5,567 bases of DNA from a virus (Duplodnaviria > Heunggongvirae > Uroviricota > Caudoviricetes). The notes below the pieces were generated by a model that saw only the letters and a list, made by a program, of their open reading frames with translations, did no database searches and was not told where the DNA came from. A program made the position numbers and the translations under genes. Shown here piece after piece: positions 600 through 5,567 of the stretch. Location: IMG/VR virus record IMGVR_UViG_2703718778_000001, positions 1 through 5,567 of that record; one strand, 5' to 3'. How positions within the stretch are numbered: the stretch's first letter is position 1; each line of letters starts with the position of its first letter.

Positions 600-1574
600 A
601 TGAGCGAAAAACTGTTATCCGGCACACCGCTGAAATGGGTGGGCGGAAAAAACCGCATCATGGACACACTGAAGGCGCACCTGCCAGAAGCTGACTGCCT
701 GGTTGAGCCGTTCGTGGGTGGCGCATCGGTATTCATGAACACCCGTTACAGCCGCTGCATCCTTGGAGATTCCAACGGTGCGCTGATTAATTTCTGGCGG
801 GCAGCACGGGACAACACCGACAGCCTGATCGATGAGGCAAAAGACCTGTTCCTGGAACATAACAACAGGGCTGACTATCTCGCCATCCGCAACACCTTTA
901 ATGCAGAGAATCATGCATTCCTGAGCACGGGAATAAGCGACCGTCGGAAACTGCGACTGGCCGCCATGTTTTTGTACCTCAACCGACACTGTTTTAACGG
1001 CCTGTTCCGCGTGAATGGAAAAGGCGATTTTAACGTTCCTTTCGGCAGCTACAGCAAACCTTATTTTCCTGAGCGGGAGATCCGCGCATTTGCAGACAAG
1101 GCAAACAGCACCCGAACACTGCTTGTTCATGGCGATTTTCGAAAAACGCTGAGCTGTGCCAGCCACCTGTTCAGCATGGGTAACACGCTTTGCGTGTACT
1201 GCGATCCCCCTTACCTGCCATTCAGTGGCCGGGACAATTTCACCGCCTATGGAAAACCATTCACGAAGGACGACCACATTCGCCTGAGAGCAGCGCTTGA
1301 CCGCCTTTCACAGGAAACGGGCGGCATGACCAGCATCACCATCTCCAATTCCGACACACCGGAAACCAGACGCATTTATCAGGGTTACCGGATGAACTGC
1401 ATACAGGCACCACGAAGCGTTGGCGCAAGAACCAGTGAACCCGCAATGGAAGTTATCGCCACCCTGAAGCAGTGCGACACCTGCGGTCGCCATGGCGGTG
1501 GCTGGTGCCCGGACTGCGGCCCGGCGACGGGAGATGCAACGTACAGCGCGATGTTTACCTCTGCTCACCCGTGA
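600..1574 (+). CDS. dam: Dam-family N6-adenine DNA methyltransferase (probably GATC-specific), with a ~35-aa Cys-rich C-terminal tail
   Basis: ATG at 600 is preceded by AGAGAGG (585-591). The protein has the Dam hallmarks LKWVGGK near the N-terminus, CLVEPFVGGASVF, FLYLNR..FNG..R.N..G.FNVPFG.Y.KPYFPE, and the catalytic DPPY motif (VYCDPPYLPFS), co-linear with E. coli Dam as I recall it. The extra tail contains CDTCGRHGGGWCPDCG (CxxC-x7-CxxC). Confidence 0.92.
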   Translation: MSEKLLSGTPLKWVGGKNRIMDTLKAHLPEADCLVEPFVGGASVFMNTRYSRCILGDSNGALINFWRAARDNTDSLIDEAKDLFLEHNNRADYLAIRNTFNAENHAFLSTGISDRRKLRLAAMFLYLNRHCFNGLFRVNGKGDFNVPFGSYSKPYFPEREIRAFADKANSTRTLLVHGDFRKTLSCASHLFSMGNTLCVYCDPPYLPFSGRDNFTAYGKPFTKDDHIRLRAALDRLSQETGGMTSITISNSDTPETRRIYQGYRMNCIQAPRSVGARTSEPAMEVIATLKQCDTCGRHGGGWCPDCGPATGDATYSAMFTSAHP

Positions 1575-2411: not shown

Positions 2412-2909
2412 CCGACCGGAGATCGAAACATGATTGCGCGAAGAGCTGCCAACCGCCTCACAGGCTTTATTCCAGGCAAGATTAATCATGCACTCCATGA
2501 TGGGACTGTCACTTTCCTCAACAAAGGAGAGGCGCGCAATCATGCATTCCTTACTAATCACATGGCGCTGACTGATAAGGCGCTGGTAACTGACTGCCTG
2601 CCATTCAGCCTTTTCAGCCCTGCGTTCAAAACTGGCAGCCATGCACTGCCAGAGCAGAAACAGAACCACACTGAAGAGTACCAACACAACAAAATCACAC
2701 AGGACAAACGCCGCAACACCAACCAGAAAGGCGCTGATTCGCAGAGCAGCAGAAACGCGTCGGTGAAACACACATGTAATACGTTCAAGCCAGTAGCTGT
2801 ACCACAGGTCAAAAAGAATGTCGTAATCAGAAGGGAGCTTATCACTCATCAGAAACACCCCGCGTATGCAGACAATCACCCGTTGCCAGGTGATATTAAT
2901 TCGCCACAT
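2385..2909 (-). CDS. candidate hypothetical membrane protein (one predicted transmembrane helix); low-confidence gene
   Basis: The minus-strand ORF is open from 2933 to 2385, with ATG candidates at 2909 and 2849 and only weak Shine-Dalgarno support. It has a ~30-aa hydrophobic segment (ISAFLVGVAAFVLCDFVVLVLFSVVLFLLW). Over the first ~168 codon triplets of the region (2430-2933), first-codon-position composition is more gene-like on the minus strand (G about 32%, T about 21%) than on the + strand shadow frame (G about 25%, T about 10%), by manual count. Its 3' end overlaps the DUF4406 gene convergently by 27 nt. Confidence 0.3.
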   Translation of the reverse strand: MWRINITWQRVIVCIRGVFLMSDKLPSDYDILFDLWYSYWLERITCVFHRRVSAALRISAFLVGVAAFVLCDFVVLVLFSVVLFLLWQCMAASFERRAEKAEWQAVSYQRLISQRHVISKECMIARLSFVEESDSPIMECMINLAWNKACEAVGSSSRNHVSISGRLLSRLCGF

Positions 2910-3032
2910 TCTAACCACATCAGCACGCAACACAAAAACCGCTTGCCAGCGCTCGTCGTGTCAGGTTACATTTCCGCTGCACCTCATAAAACGGGTGCCG
3001 GGATTGGAACCCCGCCGACTAGCAAAGCGCAC

Positions 3033-3053
3033 AACCGCGCCAGCGGTTTTTTT
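3033..3053 (+). terminator. candidate intrinsic terminator: short GC stem-loop followed by a T7 run
   Basis: AACCGC (3033-3038) pairs with GCGGTT (3043-3048) around a GCCA loop, then TTTTTTT spans 3047-3053. The U-tract follows the stem only on the + strand. The stem is short (4 G-C plus 2 A-U pairs), so strength is uncertain. Confidence 0.35.
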
Positions 3054-3106
3054 GTGCGTACTGTATCGCCACGTCTTTTTCGCGTCAGAATAATGGCGGG
3101 GCGTAC

Positions 3107-3130
3107 GGGGCCGACTTCGGTCGGGCCGGG
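3107..3130 (+). other. GC-rich stem-loop with a UUCG tetraloop (structured RNA or DNA element)
   Basis: CCGAC (3111-3115) pairs with GTCGG (3120-3124) around TTCG (3116-3119), with flanking G/C pairs able to extend the stem across one mismatch. It is followed by GGGTTCTTT. It sits in the region with no convincing + strand gene. Confidence 0.4.
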
Positions 3131-3232
3131 TTCTTTGCTAGCCGGTAGTTCCAACCCTGTACGTCTCGCCACCCTGAGCTTGGAACCTCGGGTTGGTGAG
3201 TTTTCAGAACTTACTAGCAAAGAGGCCACACC

Positions 3233-3460
3233 ATGGCAAACCGCAAGCAACAGCGCGCCCGCGCTGAGCGTCTTCACATCCGCACTGAAATCAACCGCAG
3301 ACTTTTCCGCGCCTCACGCGTCGCGCAAATCATGCACATCAATATGCTGCATGAGCGCACTCACGCTCTGTCAAACCGTTACTGTGCCGCTGTTTTCAGC
3401 TACCTGGCGGATGATCTCGCGGAGCTGCAGGACCTTATCAACCAGCAACACCACCACTAA
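3233..3460 (+). CDS. hypothetical small basic protein (75 aa)
   Basis: ATG at 3233 is preceded by AGAGG (3221-3225) at 7-nt spacing. The N-terminus is strongly basic (MANRKQQRARAERLHIRTEINRR) and the protein ends in HHH. Its position two genes upstream of the replication gene matches the small-ORF cluster of P2-like phages. Confidence 0.55.
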   Translation: MANRKQQRARAERLHIRTEINRRLFRASRVAQIMHINMLHERTHALSNRYCAAVFSYLADDLAELQDLINQQHHH

Positions 3461-3528
3461 ACAACATCCTGAAGCCATCCCGCACCCGTGCGCGGGAGGC
3501 TTCCGCACGTCTGTTACCGGAGGTTCTC

Positions 3529-3945
3529 ATGAAGAGCGTTAAGGGACTTTCAGATATTCAGGACTTTTTTAACTGGATGTGGGCGGTGGATCCCCTGCTG
3601 GCTTCCCGCCTGAACAACTGGCACGACTACTACCGCCGCGCCTGTAAACAGGCCGCCCGCAGCATCACCACATACGGGGATTTCTCCTTCACCGTTGACG
3701 GTCGTTACCGCGTGGACGTGAAAGGTGACGGTGATGGCTTTGGTTTATTTCACATCAACGGCACCGACAGTACCGCCATCAGCTGGTCATCGTCAGAGAT
3801 GGCACTGGTTCTGGAAATGACAACCCACAGCGTGGCCGTGAAAGGCATATACACCGCAGAAGACTTTATCGGTGAATACCAGCGCCTTCTCGTGCTGTAC
3901 CGCGCGGCGTTTCAGGAGGTCACTGGCGGGGAGTACGACGCATGA
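3529..3945 (+). CDS. hypothetical protein (138 aa)
   Basis: ATG at 3529 is preceded by GGAGG (3519-3523). The TGA stop at 3943-3945 overlaps the ATG of the downstream replication gene (ATGA at 3942-3945). No recognisable motif. Confidence 0.65.
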   Translation: MKSVKGLSDIQDFFNWMWAVDPLLASRLNNWHDYYRRACKQAARSITTYGDFSFTVDGRYRVDVKGDGDGFGLFHINGTDSTAISWSSSEMALVLEMTTHSVAVKGIYTAEDFIGEYQRLLVLYRAAFQEVTGGEYDA

Positions 3946-5567
3946 GTGACCGCAATGCACAGCTGGCGTACCCGTGGAACGCACCGCTACCGGTTATCGA
4001 TCCTGAAACGTTCGGCAGAGCACAACCAACCGCATTACGCCAGGCCATTCAGAGCTACATCAACGAGGACATTCGCATTGATGCCAGACTGGATGAAGAA
4101 ACCGTCTCCTTCCTGACAAACACAGACGAAGGCAAGCGAATTAATTCGCATCTTCACCACGACGAAGAGCGTCGGGTCAGACTGGAAAAACTGGCGAAGC
4201 ACAAACGCGAGAATCCGCCCACGGTGGTATCGGAAGCCATGGCAGAACTTCGCGCCCTGCCCTCGTTTCTTGGCAACGTGCTCATTCGTGATCTGGCGCG
4301 TTTAAACCGCAAACAACAAAGCGCCCGCAATGAAGGCGTGAAAAACAACAACACTCACGTGGCCGATAACTTCGTTCGCCGTGGACTGCGCACACGCCTG
4401 AAACGCATCGAACAGGTGAATGAATGCTTCGCCACGACGGCATTCAAAGCCACCGCAGCGCGTCATCGCCTTGATGAATTACTCATGCTGCCACAACTCA
4501 ACCGTGATCAAATTCAGCGCCTTGCCACACTAACGGCGGCGGCATTTTCCACCGAACTGGAACGCAGATGTGATGAAGTTACTGAGCGGACAGGAAAAGG
4601 CGACGATAACCTGTTTACCTGGTTGCTGACTTACCAGCAGCTGGCGCGCATGGCAATAAAACTGGGCGTGAACCCACCATACTGGCCGTCACTCGAGATC
4701 AGACGTGACCGCCGCACGGCACCAGACCCTGAACTGGTACCGGGCGCGGTAATGCGTATCACCTGCGCCACCTGGTGGAACAACCAGCTGCGCCACCTCG
4801 CTGATCTCTGGCGGGAGGAATTACTGCGTGCCGCCGGAAGAGTATCGCGCAAGGCATCCCCCTACATCAGCCATGAGTCACTCCAGGAATTCCGGGAGAA
4901 ACGCCAGCGCACCCGTGATTTTCTCAAAAGCTGGGACATTGAAAACGAAGACGGTGAACGCCTGAGCCTGGAGGACGTGTACTGGTCAGGGCTGGGGAAT
5001 CCGCGCAACCGCCGCAACGAGATGATGGCCTGCGTCAGAGGGATGGAACAGGTCGCCGAATCGCGTGGTGACTCCGCGTTCTTCGTGACAGTGACCTGCC
5101 CTTCCCGCTTTCACAGCGTAAACGAGGACGGCAGCCTGAACCCGAAATACAACGGTGCCACCGTGCGCGATGCCAGTGATTATCTGGTTTACGACGTCTT
5201 TGCAGCTGCAAGAAAAAAACTCAACAAAGAAGGCCTGAGCTGGTACGGGGTGCGCACCGTTGAGCCACACCATGACGGCACACCGCACTGGCACATGCTG
5301 GTATTCACCGCCCCGGACAATGAAGAACGCATCATTGAAATCATGCGTGACGCAGCAATCAAATCAGATCGCGCAGAACTGGGGAATGATATTTCTCCGC
5401 GCTTCAAATGCGAAAAAATCGACCCGGCAAAAGGCACACCGGCAAGCTACATCGCAACCTATATTGGCAAGAACCTGGACGCCAGCACCTTTCACGACAA
5501 TGACCCGAAAACCGGCAAACCTTACGCCGATAAAGAATCGGGAAAAACCATGGCGGAAACCGTGGAA
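3942..5567 (+). CDS. A: P2 gpA-family rolling-circle replication initiation endonuclease, N-terminal ~542 codons (3' end lies outside the window)
   Basis: The ORF starts at ATG 3942, preceded by GGGGAG, and by manual translation has no stop through the window end at 5567. It is absent from the supplied ORF track only because it has no stop in the window. It contains an HUH-type motif (PHWHMLVF, codons at 5283-5306) typical of the HUH endonuclease superfamily to which P2 gpA belongs. Overall similarity to P2/186 A protein is from recall. Confidence 0.88.
   Translation, partial: MSDRNAQLAYPWNAPLPVIDPETFGRAQPTALRQAIQSYINEDIRIDARLDEETVSFLTNTDEGKRINSHLHHDEERRVRLEKLAKHKRENPPTVVSEAMAELRALPSFLGNVLIRDLARLNRKQQSARNEGVKNNNTHVADNFVRRGLRTRLKRIEQVNECFATTAFKATAARHRLDELLMLPQLNRDQIQRLATLTAAAFSTELERRCDEVTERTGKGDDNLFTWLLTYQQLARMAIKLGVNPPYWPSLEIRRDRRTAPDPELVPGAVMRITCATWWNNQLRHLADLWREELLRAAGRVSRKASPYISHESLQEFREKRQRTRDFLKSWDIENEDGERLSLEDVYWSGLGNPRNRRNEMMACVRGMEQVAESRGDSAFFVTVTCPSRFHSVNEDGSLNPKYNGATVRDASDYLVYDVFAAARKKLNKEGLSWYGVRTVEPHHDGTPHWHMLVFTAPDNEERIIEIMRDAAIKSDRAELGNDISPRFKCEKIDPAKGTPASYIATYIGKNLDASTFHDNDPKTGKPYADKESGKTMAETVE

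Follow-up and report, generated by a model that had tools for sequence, protein, structure and literature searches.

Organization of the locus

The window, the whole 5,567-nt stretch of DNA that was analysed, belongs to a P2-like E. coli prophage, a full phage with capsid genes. On its + strand, a predicted promoter is followed by two RNA genes, a structured leader and three protein-coding genes. A tRNA/tmRNA scan of the window found none. The features are as follows.

2943-2972, +: predicted sigma-70 promoter (promoter scan), −35 TTGCCA at 2943-2948, 18-nt spacer, −10 TACATT at 2967-2972
2979-3053, +: IsrK-like small RNA, full-length match to Rfam RF01394 (67.9 bits; gathering score 50; E 1.9e-13)
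2979-2984 paired with 2993-2998, +: IsrK hairpin H1
2999-3002 (CGGG) paired with 3011-3014 (CCCG), +: IsrK hairpin H2, with a1 in its loop AUUGGAAC (3003-3010)
3019-3027, +: b1 target, CTAGCAAAG, on the single-stranded IsrK linker
3033-3048 plus U7 (3047-3053), +: IsrK intrinsic terminator (terminator scan)
3089-3176, +: C4/CI-type antisense RNA, match to Rfam RF01695, model positions 1-87 (84.2 bits; gathering score 45; E 3.6e-16)
3094-3110 paired with 3155-3171, +: C4 helix P1
3111-3115 (CCGAC) paired with 3120-3124 (GUCGG), +: C4 helix P2, 5 bp, UUCG loop
3125-3129 paired with 3142-3146, +: C4 helix P3, whose loop holds b′, CTTTGCTAG (3133-3141)
3148-3157, +: C4 a′, GTTCCAACCC, in the junction
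C4 3′ tail, +: CCCUG
3165-3200, +: a2 leader structure (exact complement runs; covariation)
3165-3173 paired with 3191-3200, +: outer leader helix, sharing the last bases of the C4 P1 3′ strand and the tail
CCUGAG (3173-3178) paired with CUCGGG (3187-3192), including 3176-3178 with 3187-3189, +: inner leader hairpin, stacked on the outer helix (3165-3171 × 3194-3200)
3179-3186, +: 8-nt leader loop, CUUGGAAC, containing a2 TTGGAAC (3180-3186)
3214-3225, +: b2 target, CTAGCAAAGA(G) (3214-3223/4), overlapping the Shine-Dalgarno sequence GAGG (3222-3225) of the ORF at 3233
3233-3460, +: epsilon-like gene, 75 aa, Pfam PF25738 'Derepression' (E 3e-7; 30.5 bits; gathering score 27)
3529-3945, +: ORF138, 138 aa, function unknown (ORF list; phrog_3237, E 4e-53)
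3942-5567, +: replication gene A, P2 gpA-type replication endonuclease (Pfam PF05840 Phage_GPA, E 3.7e-108; RefSeq 'replication endonuclease')

According to sequence comparison, the 75-aa protein is a homologue of the P4 epsilon helper-derepression protein. BLASTP aligned the two proteins with 32% identity over 50 aa (E 8e-8), and the RefSeq orthologue is named 'derepression protein'. The 5′ part of the gene is C-rich and G-poor (C/G 1.7-1.9 at 3219-3340), a composition suggestive of Rho-dependent termination. The stop codon of ORF138 overlaps the start of gene A (ATGA, 3942-3945); a tblastn search of a phage collection with ORF138 gave no match, despite the strong PHROG match. Gene A, incomplete at the window end, is the distal gene of the cassette's transcription unit.

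The promoter and the IsrK-like RNA

Transcription of the cassette is predicted to start at about G2979. In 35 divergent cassettes, those of P4 and P88 among them, the 5′ end of isrK is preceded at a fixed distance by a −35 of the form TTG.. and a −10 of the form TA.A.T, with a spacer between them that varies in sequence. The promoter is the predicted equivalent of P4 PLE and of PisrK. The IsrK-like element is thereby predicted to be, as expected of an isrK RNA, a primary transcript from its own promoter. A search for LexA boxes near this promoter returned only loose CTG-N10-CAG matches, located elsewhere.

The RNA itself has three hairpins, the last of which is an intrinsic terminator. This terminator (AACCGC-GCCA-GCGGTT plus T7; hairpin energy −9.0 kcal/mol) lies at 3033-3053, exactly where a reading made from the sequence alone had placed a terminator-like hairpin. 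Among 35 homologues, 95.8% of the cells in the isrK fold were paired, as compared to 33-45% in slid controls, and both sides had changed in 10 of the 17 pairs. A second Rfam model, RF03163 (c4-a1b1), scored 18.4 bits at 2966-3018, below its gathering score of 46.7; it scored 44.1 bits in P4 and 48.1 bits in Gifsy-1. Since the RF03163 match overlaps the isrK match in each of these two elements, the two models describe the same element. The IsrK-like RNA is the equivalent of P4 seqA and of P1 a1-b1.

The C4 antisense RNA

The sequence-only reading had proposed a structured non-coding RNA in this region, to be checked with Infernal against Rfam and by looking for compensatory changes in homologues. 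Both checks were positive. The scan returned two families above their gathering scores, RF01394 and RF01695, with both RNA genes full length and on the + strand (isrK at 2979-3053, C4 at 3089-3176), and both folds carry compensatory changes. The fold of 2970-3240 had a z-score of −4.25, and none of 200 shuffles was equally stable.

The C4 RNA shows the long closing helix and two hairpins of its family. Across 44 homologues, 99.4% of this fold was paired (slid controls, 31-55%), and 16 of the 27 pairs had changed on both sides. The minimum-free-energy fold of the isolated RNA (−48.5 kcal/mol) is the three-helix family structure, which by itself scores −47.2 kcal/mol. A UUCG-capped hairpin previously drawn at 3107-3130 is present as P2, but those limits also take in portions of P1 and P3, and the helix that has support is 5 bp long.

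In P1 and P4, C4/CI RNAs are excised from a longer transcript. By homology, the C4 RNA of the window would likewise be cut from a longer transcript, with RNase P acting at its 5′ end, in line with the processing site that the sequence-only reading had raised. In most cassettes the isrK-C4 spacer is only about 25 nt, and a separate C4 promoter therefore has no room. A second promoter-like site in the window, TCGCCA-17-AATAAT (3066-3094), was considered as a C4 promoter and rejected: a start 6-8 nt past its −10 falls within the 5′ strand of P1, and the short distance between the isrK terminator and C4 in most cassettes also speaks against it.

Antisense targets and the leader

The b′ loop is exactly complementary to b1 over 9 nt and to b2 over 10 nt of Watson-Crick pairs, or 11 nt with G-U. 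Within the window, b1 and b2 are the only two sites of the 9-mer CTAGCAAAG, and its complement is present just once, in the C4 loop. The a′ segment matches a1 in an exact run of 7 nt and a2 over 7 nt. A distant inverted repeat had been noted here: it is present, as GGATTGGAAC at 3001-3010 and GTTCCAACCC at 3148-3157, both coordinates having been given off by one, and it corresponds to a1 and a′, target and antisense. All 10 bases of the repeat pair if a one-base bulge is allowed (GGG-A-TTGGAAC, 3000-3010). Thus a′ and b′ are each complementary to one upstream and one downstream site, as in C4/CI RNAs, and b2, the downstream target of b′, lies over the ribosome-binding site of the first ORF. 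For most cassettes, the gap from the end of b2 to the first start codon is 9-11 nt, and a2 lies at +2 to +4 past the C4 3′ end.

To compare self with foreign pairing we used 35 distinct b′ loop types, the comparative set as a whole comprising about 40 to 58 related cassettes drawn from viral contigs. Downstream, the mean longest run with the cassette's own loop as opposed to foreign loops was 8.4 versus 4.4 nt for b2 and 6.5 versus 3.9 nt for a2; upstream, it was 7.2 versus 4.9 nt for b1 and 6.8 versus 4.8 nt for a1. The window's combination of a′ and b′ was shared in full by no other sampled cassette, and there is therefore no sign among these cassettes of C4 targeting another element.

The leader between C4 and b2 also shows covariation. 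In 32 homologues, 90.5% of the leader helix was paired (slid controls, 27-51%), and both sides had changed in 9 of 12 pairs; the minimum-free-energy fold of 3166-3200 was −17.3 kcal/mol. Most cassettes share CACCACC, which makes the self-versus-foreign control weak for the outer leader helix; this helix was judged by the pair-count test instead. A hairpin AACC-TCG-GGTT proposed for this segment is literally present (3184-3194), but the leader covariation indicates that homologues conserve another fold.

A model for the cassette

Overall, we consider it quite likely that region 2943-3225 is one copy of an IsrK-C4 antisense-RNA immunity cassette that acts as follows. The promoter would be constitutive, with transcription from about 2979, and most transcripts would end at the U7 terminator to yield a roughly 75-nt IsrK-like RNA carrying the targets a1 and b1. 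A read-through fraction would contain the C4 RNA, which by homology would be released through RNase P cleavage at about 3094 and trimming of its 3′ end. Its exposed segments, b′ in the P3 loop and a′ in the junction, would then pair with b2 (3214-3224) and a2, the latter being met in a hairpin loop. With the Shine-Dalgarno sequence overlapped by b2, ribosomes would fail to start on the epsilon-like derepression gene, and Rho would probably stop transcription on the untranslated, C-rich RNA. Such a stop might also deny ORF138 and gene A to transcripts from the cassette promoter. The IsrK-like RNA would act as a decoy through a1 and b1, pairing with C4 in cis, as an inactive precursor, or in trans, and so set a threshold.

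The later steps of this model are drawn by analogy from P1, P4 and Gifsy-1: read-through, RNase P processing, the translational block, Rho polarity and the presumed antirepressor role of the epsilon-like protein. For P4, the work of Forti, Sabbattini, Briani, Deho and Ghisotti (1995-2002) reportedly covers RNase P processing, the kil/seqC translational block and the Rho-dependent timm. The c4 RNA of P1/P7 blocks ant mRNA at its ribosome site (PMC12197685). In Gifsy-1, read-through of the IsrK terminator is documented, a fraction of isrK transcripts reading on into the downstream RNA and mRNA, and STnc1160 is lost on deletion of PisrK (PMC4825925). By homology, the 3033-3053 hairpin would accordingly be the partial terminator that the sequence-only reading had suggested. 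Its idea that read-through into the replication genes is metered did not hold up in that form: the module would most directly control the epsilon-like gene, and any effect on gene A would be indirect.

Some observations count against this model. The a2 site is a 7-nt exact match that is partly duplicated (3180-3186 and, as the partial a′ match GGGTTGG, 3190-3196), and the a2 duplex energy, −13.1, falls within that of shuffles (shuffled minimum −19.1). The conserved helix 3165-3173 × 3191-3200, which is in competition with the base of C4 P1, is unaccounted for by the model; joining the C4 3′ strand to the leader, it may be a maturation or switch element not described before.

Transcripts from an upstream early promoter also enter the cassette, which was likewise counted against the model.

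Alternative explanations

The foremost alternative, which we regard as unlikely, is an activator logic of the type published for Gifsy-1. In this scheme the read-through transcript would be kept silent by cis pairing of a1/b1 with a′/b′, and the IsrK-like RNA would open it in trans. Translation of a small ORF from a conserved AUG in the C4 5′ strand would then reach the downstream gene by coupling, and C4 would be mainly an mRNA segment. Such an AUG is found in the window at 3093-3095, and the minimum-free-energy fold of 2970-3240 pairs a1/b1 with a′/b′ in cis, as in Gifsy-1, where the compensatory mutants G28A/C162U and G31A/C159U back the cis helix (PMC4825925). In that phage IsrK in trans lifts anrP translation more than 100-fold, constitutive STnc1160 strengthened rather than weakened IsrK toxicity, and the published reading is IsrK activation via 'orf45' translation, not C4 repression (PMC4825925). 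By contrast, the AUG frame is not conserved as an ORF, being 8 to 123 codons long across cassettes or open beyond the examined sequence. In the window, the frame from ATG 3093 belongs to the ORF that ends at 3542 and so runs for about 149 codons, overlapping the epsilon-like gene out of frame, with no stop-start coupling. The covariation is of the RNA type, with compensatory changes in the C4 stems, and it is established that the homologous RNA is a repressor in P1 and P4 (PMC12197685). The activator and repressor views are also compatible, in that an IsrK decoy titrating C4 would give the same genetics.

Two further explanations are much less probable. In the first, the T7 hairpin would be plain operon punctuation that attenuates the early operon into the replication genes, with the other hairpins being incidental or a processing site without an antisense role. 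The terminator at 3033-3053 is indeed real and lies within a long + strand operon. Nevertheless, the loops and targets co-vary over 35 specificity types, a dedicated conserved promoter lies upstream, and the same cassette precedes unrelated genes in lambdoid, P4-like and P2-like elements; we consider this explanation very improbable.

In the second, slightly less probable still, the locus would encode an 'Ash family' protein or a 5′ extension of the downstream protein, in a + strand ORF (2430-3542) or a − strand ORF (2984-3277). The + frame is open from 2430 to 3542, Pfam Phage_ASH matches its residues 180-269 (E 9.8e-5), and databases label the position 'ash family protein' or 'hypothetical protein'. 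This match, however, is below the gathering score of PF10554 (23.2 versus 26 bits) and falls exactly on the RNA cassette (nt 2967-3236), here translated as though it were coding. Phage_ASH also matches the old P4 'cI protein' ORF, now recognized as the CI RNA locus. The frame length is not conserved, the stems show compensatory double changes, and the − strand ORF has no family match. In favour of a protein, a western blot of SPA-tagged orf45 is among the methods given for Gifsy-1 (PMC4825925).

Finally, a retron-like msr-msd element, a resemblance raised earlier from the flanking inverted repeats and nothing else, can be dismissed, as no reverse transcriptase domain was found among the 9 ORFs scanned, no retron RNA family appeared in the Rfam scan at E ≤ 1, and the repeats are accounted for as the a1-a′ target/antisense pair.

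Spread and significance

The IsrK-C4 cassette is a very common and well-known type of phage regulatory module. Its parts are named PLE-seqA-CI-seqC in P4 and a1b1-c4-a2b2 in P1/P7. The equivalences of IsrK with seqA and of C4 with CI RNA have been given previously (PMC3632133), and GenBank record LC710661 already carries isrK and C4 annotations side by side. The cassette is present in 1161 of 5426 complete E. coli genomes, such that about one fifth of them hold a close copy. A copy with 100% identity is carried by E. coli STEC2018-607 (NZ_CP075697). Similar cassettes precede unrelated genes in lambdoid, P4-like and P2-like elements, the first gene encoding Rha, Bro-N, a small P4-like ORF (62-81 aa) or an epsilon-like protein. 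The RNA element as such is nothing unusual: Rfam has a curated family for each of the two RNAs, and their pairing as an 'IsrK-C4 immunity system' is already published. The practical value of the present assignment lies in annotation. RefSeq and GenBank mostly describe the locus as 'hypothetical protein', as 'ash family protein' or as the 5′ portion of an antirepressor; the true features at this mislabelled locus are two RNAs and a short leader.

The biological point is modest: in P88-like prophages of the P2 family, the cassette would gate a P4-epsilon-like gene upstream of gene A. Such gating would put RNA-based control into the lysis-lysogeny switch of a helper-type phage. We suggest, tentatively and with some doubt, that a complete P2-like phage (helper-type, P88/Xuanwuvirus-like) carries an RNA immunity module and an epsilon-type derepressor, textbook features of the parasite P4, wired before its own gene A. 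Should the epsilon-like protein act by inactivating the C-type repressor of the same phage, an orthologue of WP_000247831, the result would be a two-layer immunity like that of P1, with a protein repressor and an RNA-gated antirepressor. This would be an induction route distinct from those of P2, which is non-inducible, and of 186, which uses LexA-Tum. Another possibility is that the module serves as a weapon or decoy in conflicts between helper and satellite, a role that has been speculated for lambdoid prophages (PMC3632133). A search of the literature on regulation in P88/Xuanwuvirus or on epsilon-like genes in P2-like phages found nothing relevant.

Comparison with known systems

The immunity region of P4 has the order PLE - seqA - CI RNA/seqB - seqC - kil/eta ... 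epsilon - orf151 - alpha. The isrK model matched P4 at 8615-8692 (60.8 bits, seqA region) and the C4 model at 8420-8507 (74.9 bits, CI RNA), with the order and strand as in the window. As here, the promoter lies at an equal distance and the loops have complementary targets on either flank; a b2/seqC-like site stops 10 nt before the first ATG. Both elements have an epsilon homologue and a replication gene downstream. By contrast, the isrK-C4 spacer is 35 nt here and about 107 nt in P4, and the loop sequences, hence the specificity, differ. The window has the epsilon gene of a P4-type operon downstream of the RNA and lacks kil/eta as first ORF, orf151 and the alpha primase-helicase. Its first ORF is epsilon-like, whereas a 65-aa ORF, presumably kil, follows the CI RNA in P4. 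ORF138 is unrelated to P4 orf151 (no similarity; E 18), and the replication gene is of the P2 gpA type rather than an alpha primase. Finally, the window comes from a complete P2-like phage that has capsid genes, whereas P4 is a satellite.

The c4 RNA of P1/P7 is the founding member of the Rfam C4 family, and the immI locus, c4 - icd - ant, was reportedly described by Citron and Schuster in 1990. As in the window, an antisense RNA exposes a′ and b′, with a1/b1 upstream and a2/b2 downstream. In P1/P7, the first ORF has its ribosome site at b2, and the output is an antirepressor. Unlike in immI, a domain search of the downstream ORFs of the window found no icd or ant homologues, and the a1/b1 element here is a discrete terminated isrK-type RNA. 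Cassettes of lambdoid Stx2, mEp460 and SfV-like phages, located before Rha/Bro-N antirepressor genes, are 72-75% identical to the window over 2972-3226, with isrK and C4 both above threshold; they differ from the window in loop specificity and in the family of the gene downstream.

Gifsy-1, a lambdoid phage, scored 79.3 bits for isrK and 69 bits for C4, the latter 26 nt downstream. The C4 match overlaps the published 'orf45'/STnc1160, and ATG 34210 corresponds to transcript position 107, the 'first AUG A107' of the paper (PMC4825925). Gifsy-1 has a 45-codon frame with a stop that overlaps the anrP ATG; this frame is absent from the window, where the corresponding one runs to 3542. The regulated gene encodes AnrP in Gifsy-1 and an epsilon-like protein here, and the published Gifsy-1 mechanism is activation by IsrK (PMC4825925). 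Terminator read-through and a processed, stable PisrK-dependent RNA were shown experimentally in that phage (Hershko-Shalev 2016, PMC4825925). Its layout is that of the window, namely isrK, a short spacer, the C4 match, an a2 hairpin and b2 on the Shine-Dalgarno sequence, and the next gene after b2 is of the antirepressor type.

Genomic setting

The window covers part of the early region of a P2-like (Peduoviridae, P88/Xuanwuvirus-like) E. coli prophage. A prophage adjoining rraA/menA in strain JNEC-KY179 shares 97.6% identity with the window; besides a long + strand early operon, that prophage has genes for an integrase, an HTH repressor, a Cox-like protein and the P2-type capsid. A gap of ~300 nt separates the − strand ORF (2385-2933) from the 75-aa ORF; an IsrK–C4 antisense-RNA immunity cassette occupies 2943-3225 (+).

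Genes and cassette elements of the window (a' and b', exposed C4 segments)
window (+): 3'-5' exonuclease gene
600-1574 (+): Dam methylase gene
window (+): small ORFs
window (+): DUF4406 protein gene
2385-2933 (−): single − strand ORF, after the DUF4406 gene
2943-2948 and 2967-2972 (+): predicted cassette promoter, conserved pair of −35 TTGCCA and −10 TACATT
3000-3010 (+): a1, GGG-A-TTGGAAC, 8-nt loop of isrK hairpin 2
3019-3027 (+): b1, single-stranded isrK linker, exact complement of b'
3180-3186 (+): a2, TTGGAAC, match to a'
3214-3223/4 (+): b2, exact complement of b', running into the Shine-Dalgarno GAGG at 3222-3225
3233-3460 (+): 75-aa ORF, homologue of phage P4 epsilon
3529-3945 (+): 138-aa ORF (ORF138)
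from 3942 (+): replication gene A

The ORF138 stop and the gene A start share ATGA (3942-3945), an overlap that suggests translational coupling of gene A to ORF138. The sole − strand gene within the + strand early operon (2385-2933) encodes 182 aa with hydrophobic stretches (phrog_6315, function unknown); it overlaps the DUF4406 gene at its 3' end, and the − strand has a terminator-like site at 2405-2390. Lying immediately 5' of the cassette promoter, the gene is a possible moron or lysogenic-conversion gene. The RefSeq orthologue of a small ORF between the exonuclease and Dam methylase genes (400-603, +) is named 'ParE family toxin-like protein'; RefSeq has no adjacent antitoxin annotation.

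Two structured RNAs and their leader

A sequence-only reading had proposed, among other possibilities, a structured non-coding RNA here from four elements, all of which are in the sequence, although two of its coordinates were shifted by one and its limits for the UUCG hairpin were too wide. The proposal is borne out. According to an Rfam scan of the entire window, isrK (RF01394; 2979-3053, +; 67.9 bits, E 1.9e-13) and C4 antisense RNA (RF01695; 3089-3176, +; 84.2 bits, E 3.6e-16) both match at full length and above their gathering scores. The hairpin with the T7 run is the isrK 3' terminator, and the UUCG hairpin is C4 helix P2. The region folds better than 200 of 200 shuffles (z = −4.25). 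The window contains no tRNA.

For comparison, a pattern scan of viral contigs together with P88, Stx2 phages, mEp460 and P4 yielded 58 distinct C4 cassettes. An isrK-like terminated element precedes nearly all of them, and the −35/−10 pair lies at a fixed distance 5' of every isrK 5' end, with a variable spacer sequence. Compensatory changes in homologues support all three folds.

Pairing and compensatory change in homologues
C4: 44 homologues; 99.4% of cells paired; 16/27 pairs changed on both sides; slid controls 31-55%
isrK: 35 homologues; 95.8% of cells paired; 10/17 pairs changed on both sides; slid controls 33-45%
a2 leader: 32 homologues; 90.5% of cells paired; 9/12 pairs changed on both sides; slid controls 27-51%

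The third hairpin was partly misread: the AACC-TCG-GGTT sequence is there, but homologues keep a different small hairpin, whose 8-nt loop displays a2. Its window coordinates are 3176-3178 × 3187-3189, extended in the energy fold to 3173-3178 × 3187-3192. It stacks on a conserved, co-varying helix that encloses it (alignment A3), in which the leader (3191-3200) pairs with 3165-3173, the end of the C4 P1 3' strand plus the tail. The leader structure (3165-3200) is much weaker than P1 (−17.3 vs −48.5 kcal/mol). Its helix and the base of P1 compete and are mutually exclusive.

Antisense loops and their targets

The b' segment, CTTTGCTAG (3133-3141), lies in the C4 P3 loop; its exact complement occurs at just two window sites, b1 and b2. 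The Shine-Dalgarno sequence that b2 enters serves the ATG at 3233. The a' segment, GTTCCAACCC (3148-3157), lies in the C4 junction and matches a1 and a2. Since a' matches a1, the loop of isrK hairpin 2, the distant near-inverted repeat of the sequence-only reading is real but is the a1/a' pair, not a retron-like arrangement.

Among the cassettes, b' has 35 distinct types, and the targets change along with the loops. We compared the mean longest Watson-Crick run of each cassette's own loop against its own flank with that of foreign loops. Own loops gave 8.4 nt at b2 (foreign, 4.4), 7.2 nt at b1 (4.9), 6.5 nt at a2 (3.9) and 6.8 nt at a1 (4.8). The positions of a2 and b2 are fixed, at 2-4 and 30-38 nt past the C4 3' end, respectively, and in most cassettes the first start codon follows the b2 end by 9-11 nt. 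The genes directly downstream are Rha-family or Bro-N antirepressor-type, small P4-like ORFs (62-81 aa) or epsilon-like. Overall, these data show the identity, folds, promoter, complementarity, covariation and geometry of the cassette.

Some viral contigs carry tandem cassettes, with two or three complete isrK-C4 copies ~650 nt apart (L062 9709-11209, −; L033 4577-5421, +; and L087). The loop specificities of the copies differ, and a small Rha-like ORF follows each.

Proposed mechanism

The cassette most likely follows the logic of phages P1 and P4. Transcription would start at the cassette promoter, and the U7 terminator would end most transcripts to give an IsrK-like RNA; read-through transcripts would yield C4 after processing. 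Pairing of C4 with a2 and b2 would block ribosome entry on the epsilon-like gene. The RNA is C-rich at 3219-3340 (C/G 1.7-1.9); left untranslated, it would probably permit Rho-dependent termination, lowering expression of ORF138 and gene A from the cassette promoter. Processing, translational block, polarity and an antirepressor activity of the epsilon-like protein are predicted from homologues.

The IsrK-like RNA would carry decoy targets and could keep the precursor cis-paired and inactive. The minimum-free-energy fold of 2970-3240 pairs a1/b1 with a'/b'. In addition, the IsrK-like RNA could act in trans by titrating C4, and this would bring the model into line with the activation by IsrK seen in Gifsy-1.

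Alternative readings

In Gifsy-1, the published orf45 has its 'first AUG' at transcript position 107, and this codon is the AUG conserved in the C4 P1 5' strand; 'orf45'/STnc1160 thus coincides with a C4 gene. The published model invokes orf45 translation. Applied to the window locus, it is weakened because the frame opened by this AUG is not conserved in length: among the cassettes its stop comes after 8 to 123 codons, or lies beyond the sequence examined. In the window the frame runs from 3093 to a stop at 3542 (~149 codons) and is not in register with the epsilon-like gene. The Gifsy-1 orf45 (L127 34073-34210, −) runs from this AUG across all of C4, a2, b2 and the Shine-Dalgarno sequence, and ends at a stop codon that overlaps the anrP ATG. 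The frame is open through the ~300 nt examined downstream in about half of the cassettes, and in some Rha-type cassettes, such as L002, it enters the downstream gene in frame.

A protein-coding 'Ash' reading is an annotation artefact. The PF10554 match is exactly the translated cassette, both in the window (2967-3236, +; residues 180-269 of ORF 2430-3542; 23.2 bits, below threshold) and in the obsolete phage P4 'cI gene product' ORF (L006 8168-8584, −; 59.7 bits). A third match falls in the upstream-extended part of a lambdoid 'antirepressor' CDS (L002 2646-3797; 54.8 bits). The 'Ash protein family' seems to be a protein-level model of an ncRNA locus. PF10554 is also a source of 'ash family protein' labels and of antirepressor CDSs with ~200 codons of upstream extension.

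Plain attenuation is contradicted by the co-variation of loops with their targets and by the conserved promoter. The suggested resemblance to a retron msr-msd is contradicted as well: the Rfam scan of the window matched no retron family, and the 9 ORFs scanned have no reverse transcriptase domain.

Distribution and comparison with known systems

Of 5426 complete E. coli genomes, 1161 have a cassette copy (≥80% coverage), and a single genome can hold as many as four. RefSeq E. coli records show no ncRNA feature at this locus; one GenBank phage record carries both RNAs annotated side by side. In the P88 GenBank record (L001), a − strand 'hypothetical protein' CDS (AIZ95121.1, 4055-4243) lies wholly over isrK and C4. 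The main practical gain is a corrected annotation of the cassette locus.

In phage P4, the C4 model matches the CI RNA (8420-8507, 74.9 bits) and the isrK model the seqA region (8615-8692, 60.8 bits). Barquist et al. 2013 (PMC3632133) equated IsrK with seqA and C4 with the CI RNA, and reported this system for P4-like and lambdoid prophages as well as for P1, P7 and N15. The 75-aa protein is homologous to the helper derepression protein of P4, epsilon, at 32% identity across 50 aa (E 8e-8); it matches PF25738 (30.5 bits) and RefSeq names it 'derepression protein'. In Gifsy-1, matches to isrK (79.3 bits) and C4 (69 bits) come first, then an a2 hairpin, a b2 site on the Shine-Dalgarno sequence and finally the antirepressor gene anrP.

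We found no paper on a P4-style module with an epsilon-like gene before the replication gene of a P2-like phage. The cassette is a standard, already described regulatory element; only its context is mildly unusual, in that a helper-type P2-like phage has its own replication gene directly preceded by a P4-style RNA immunity module and an epsilon-like gene.
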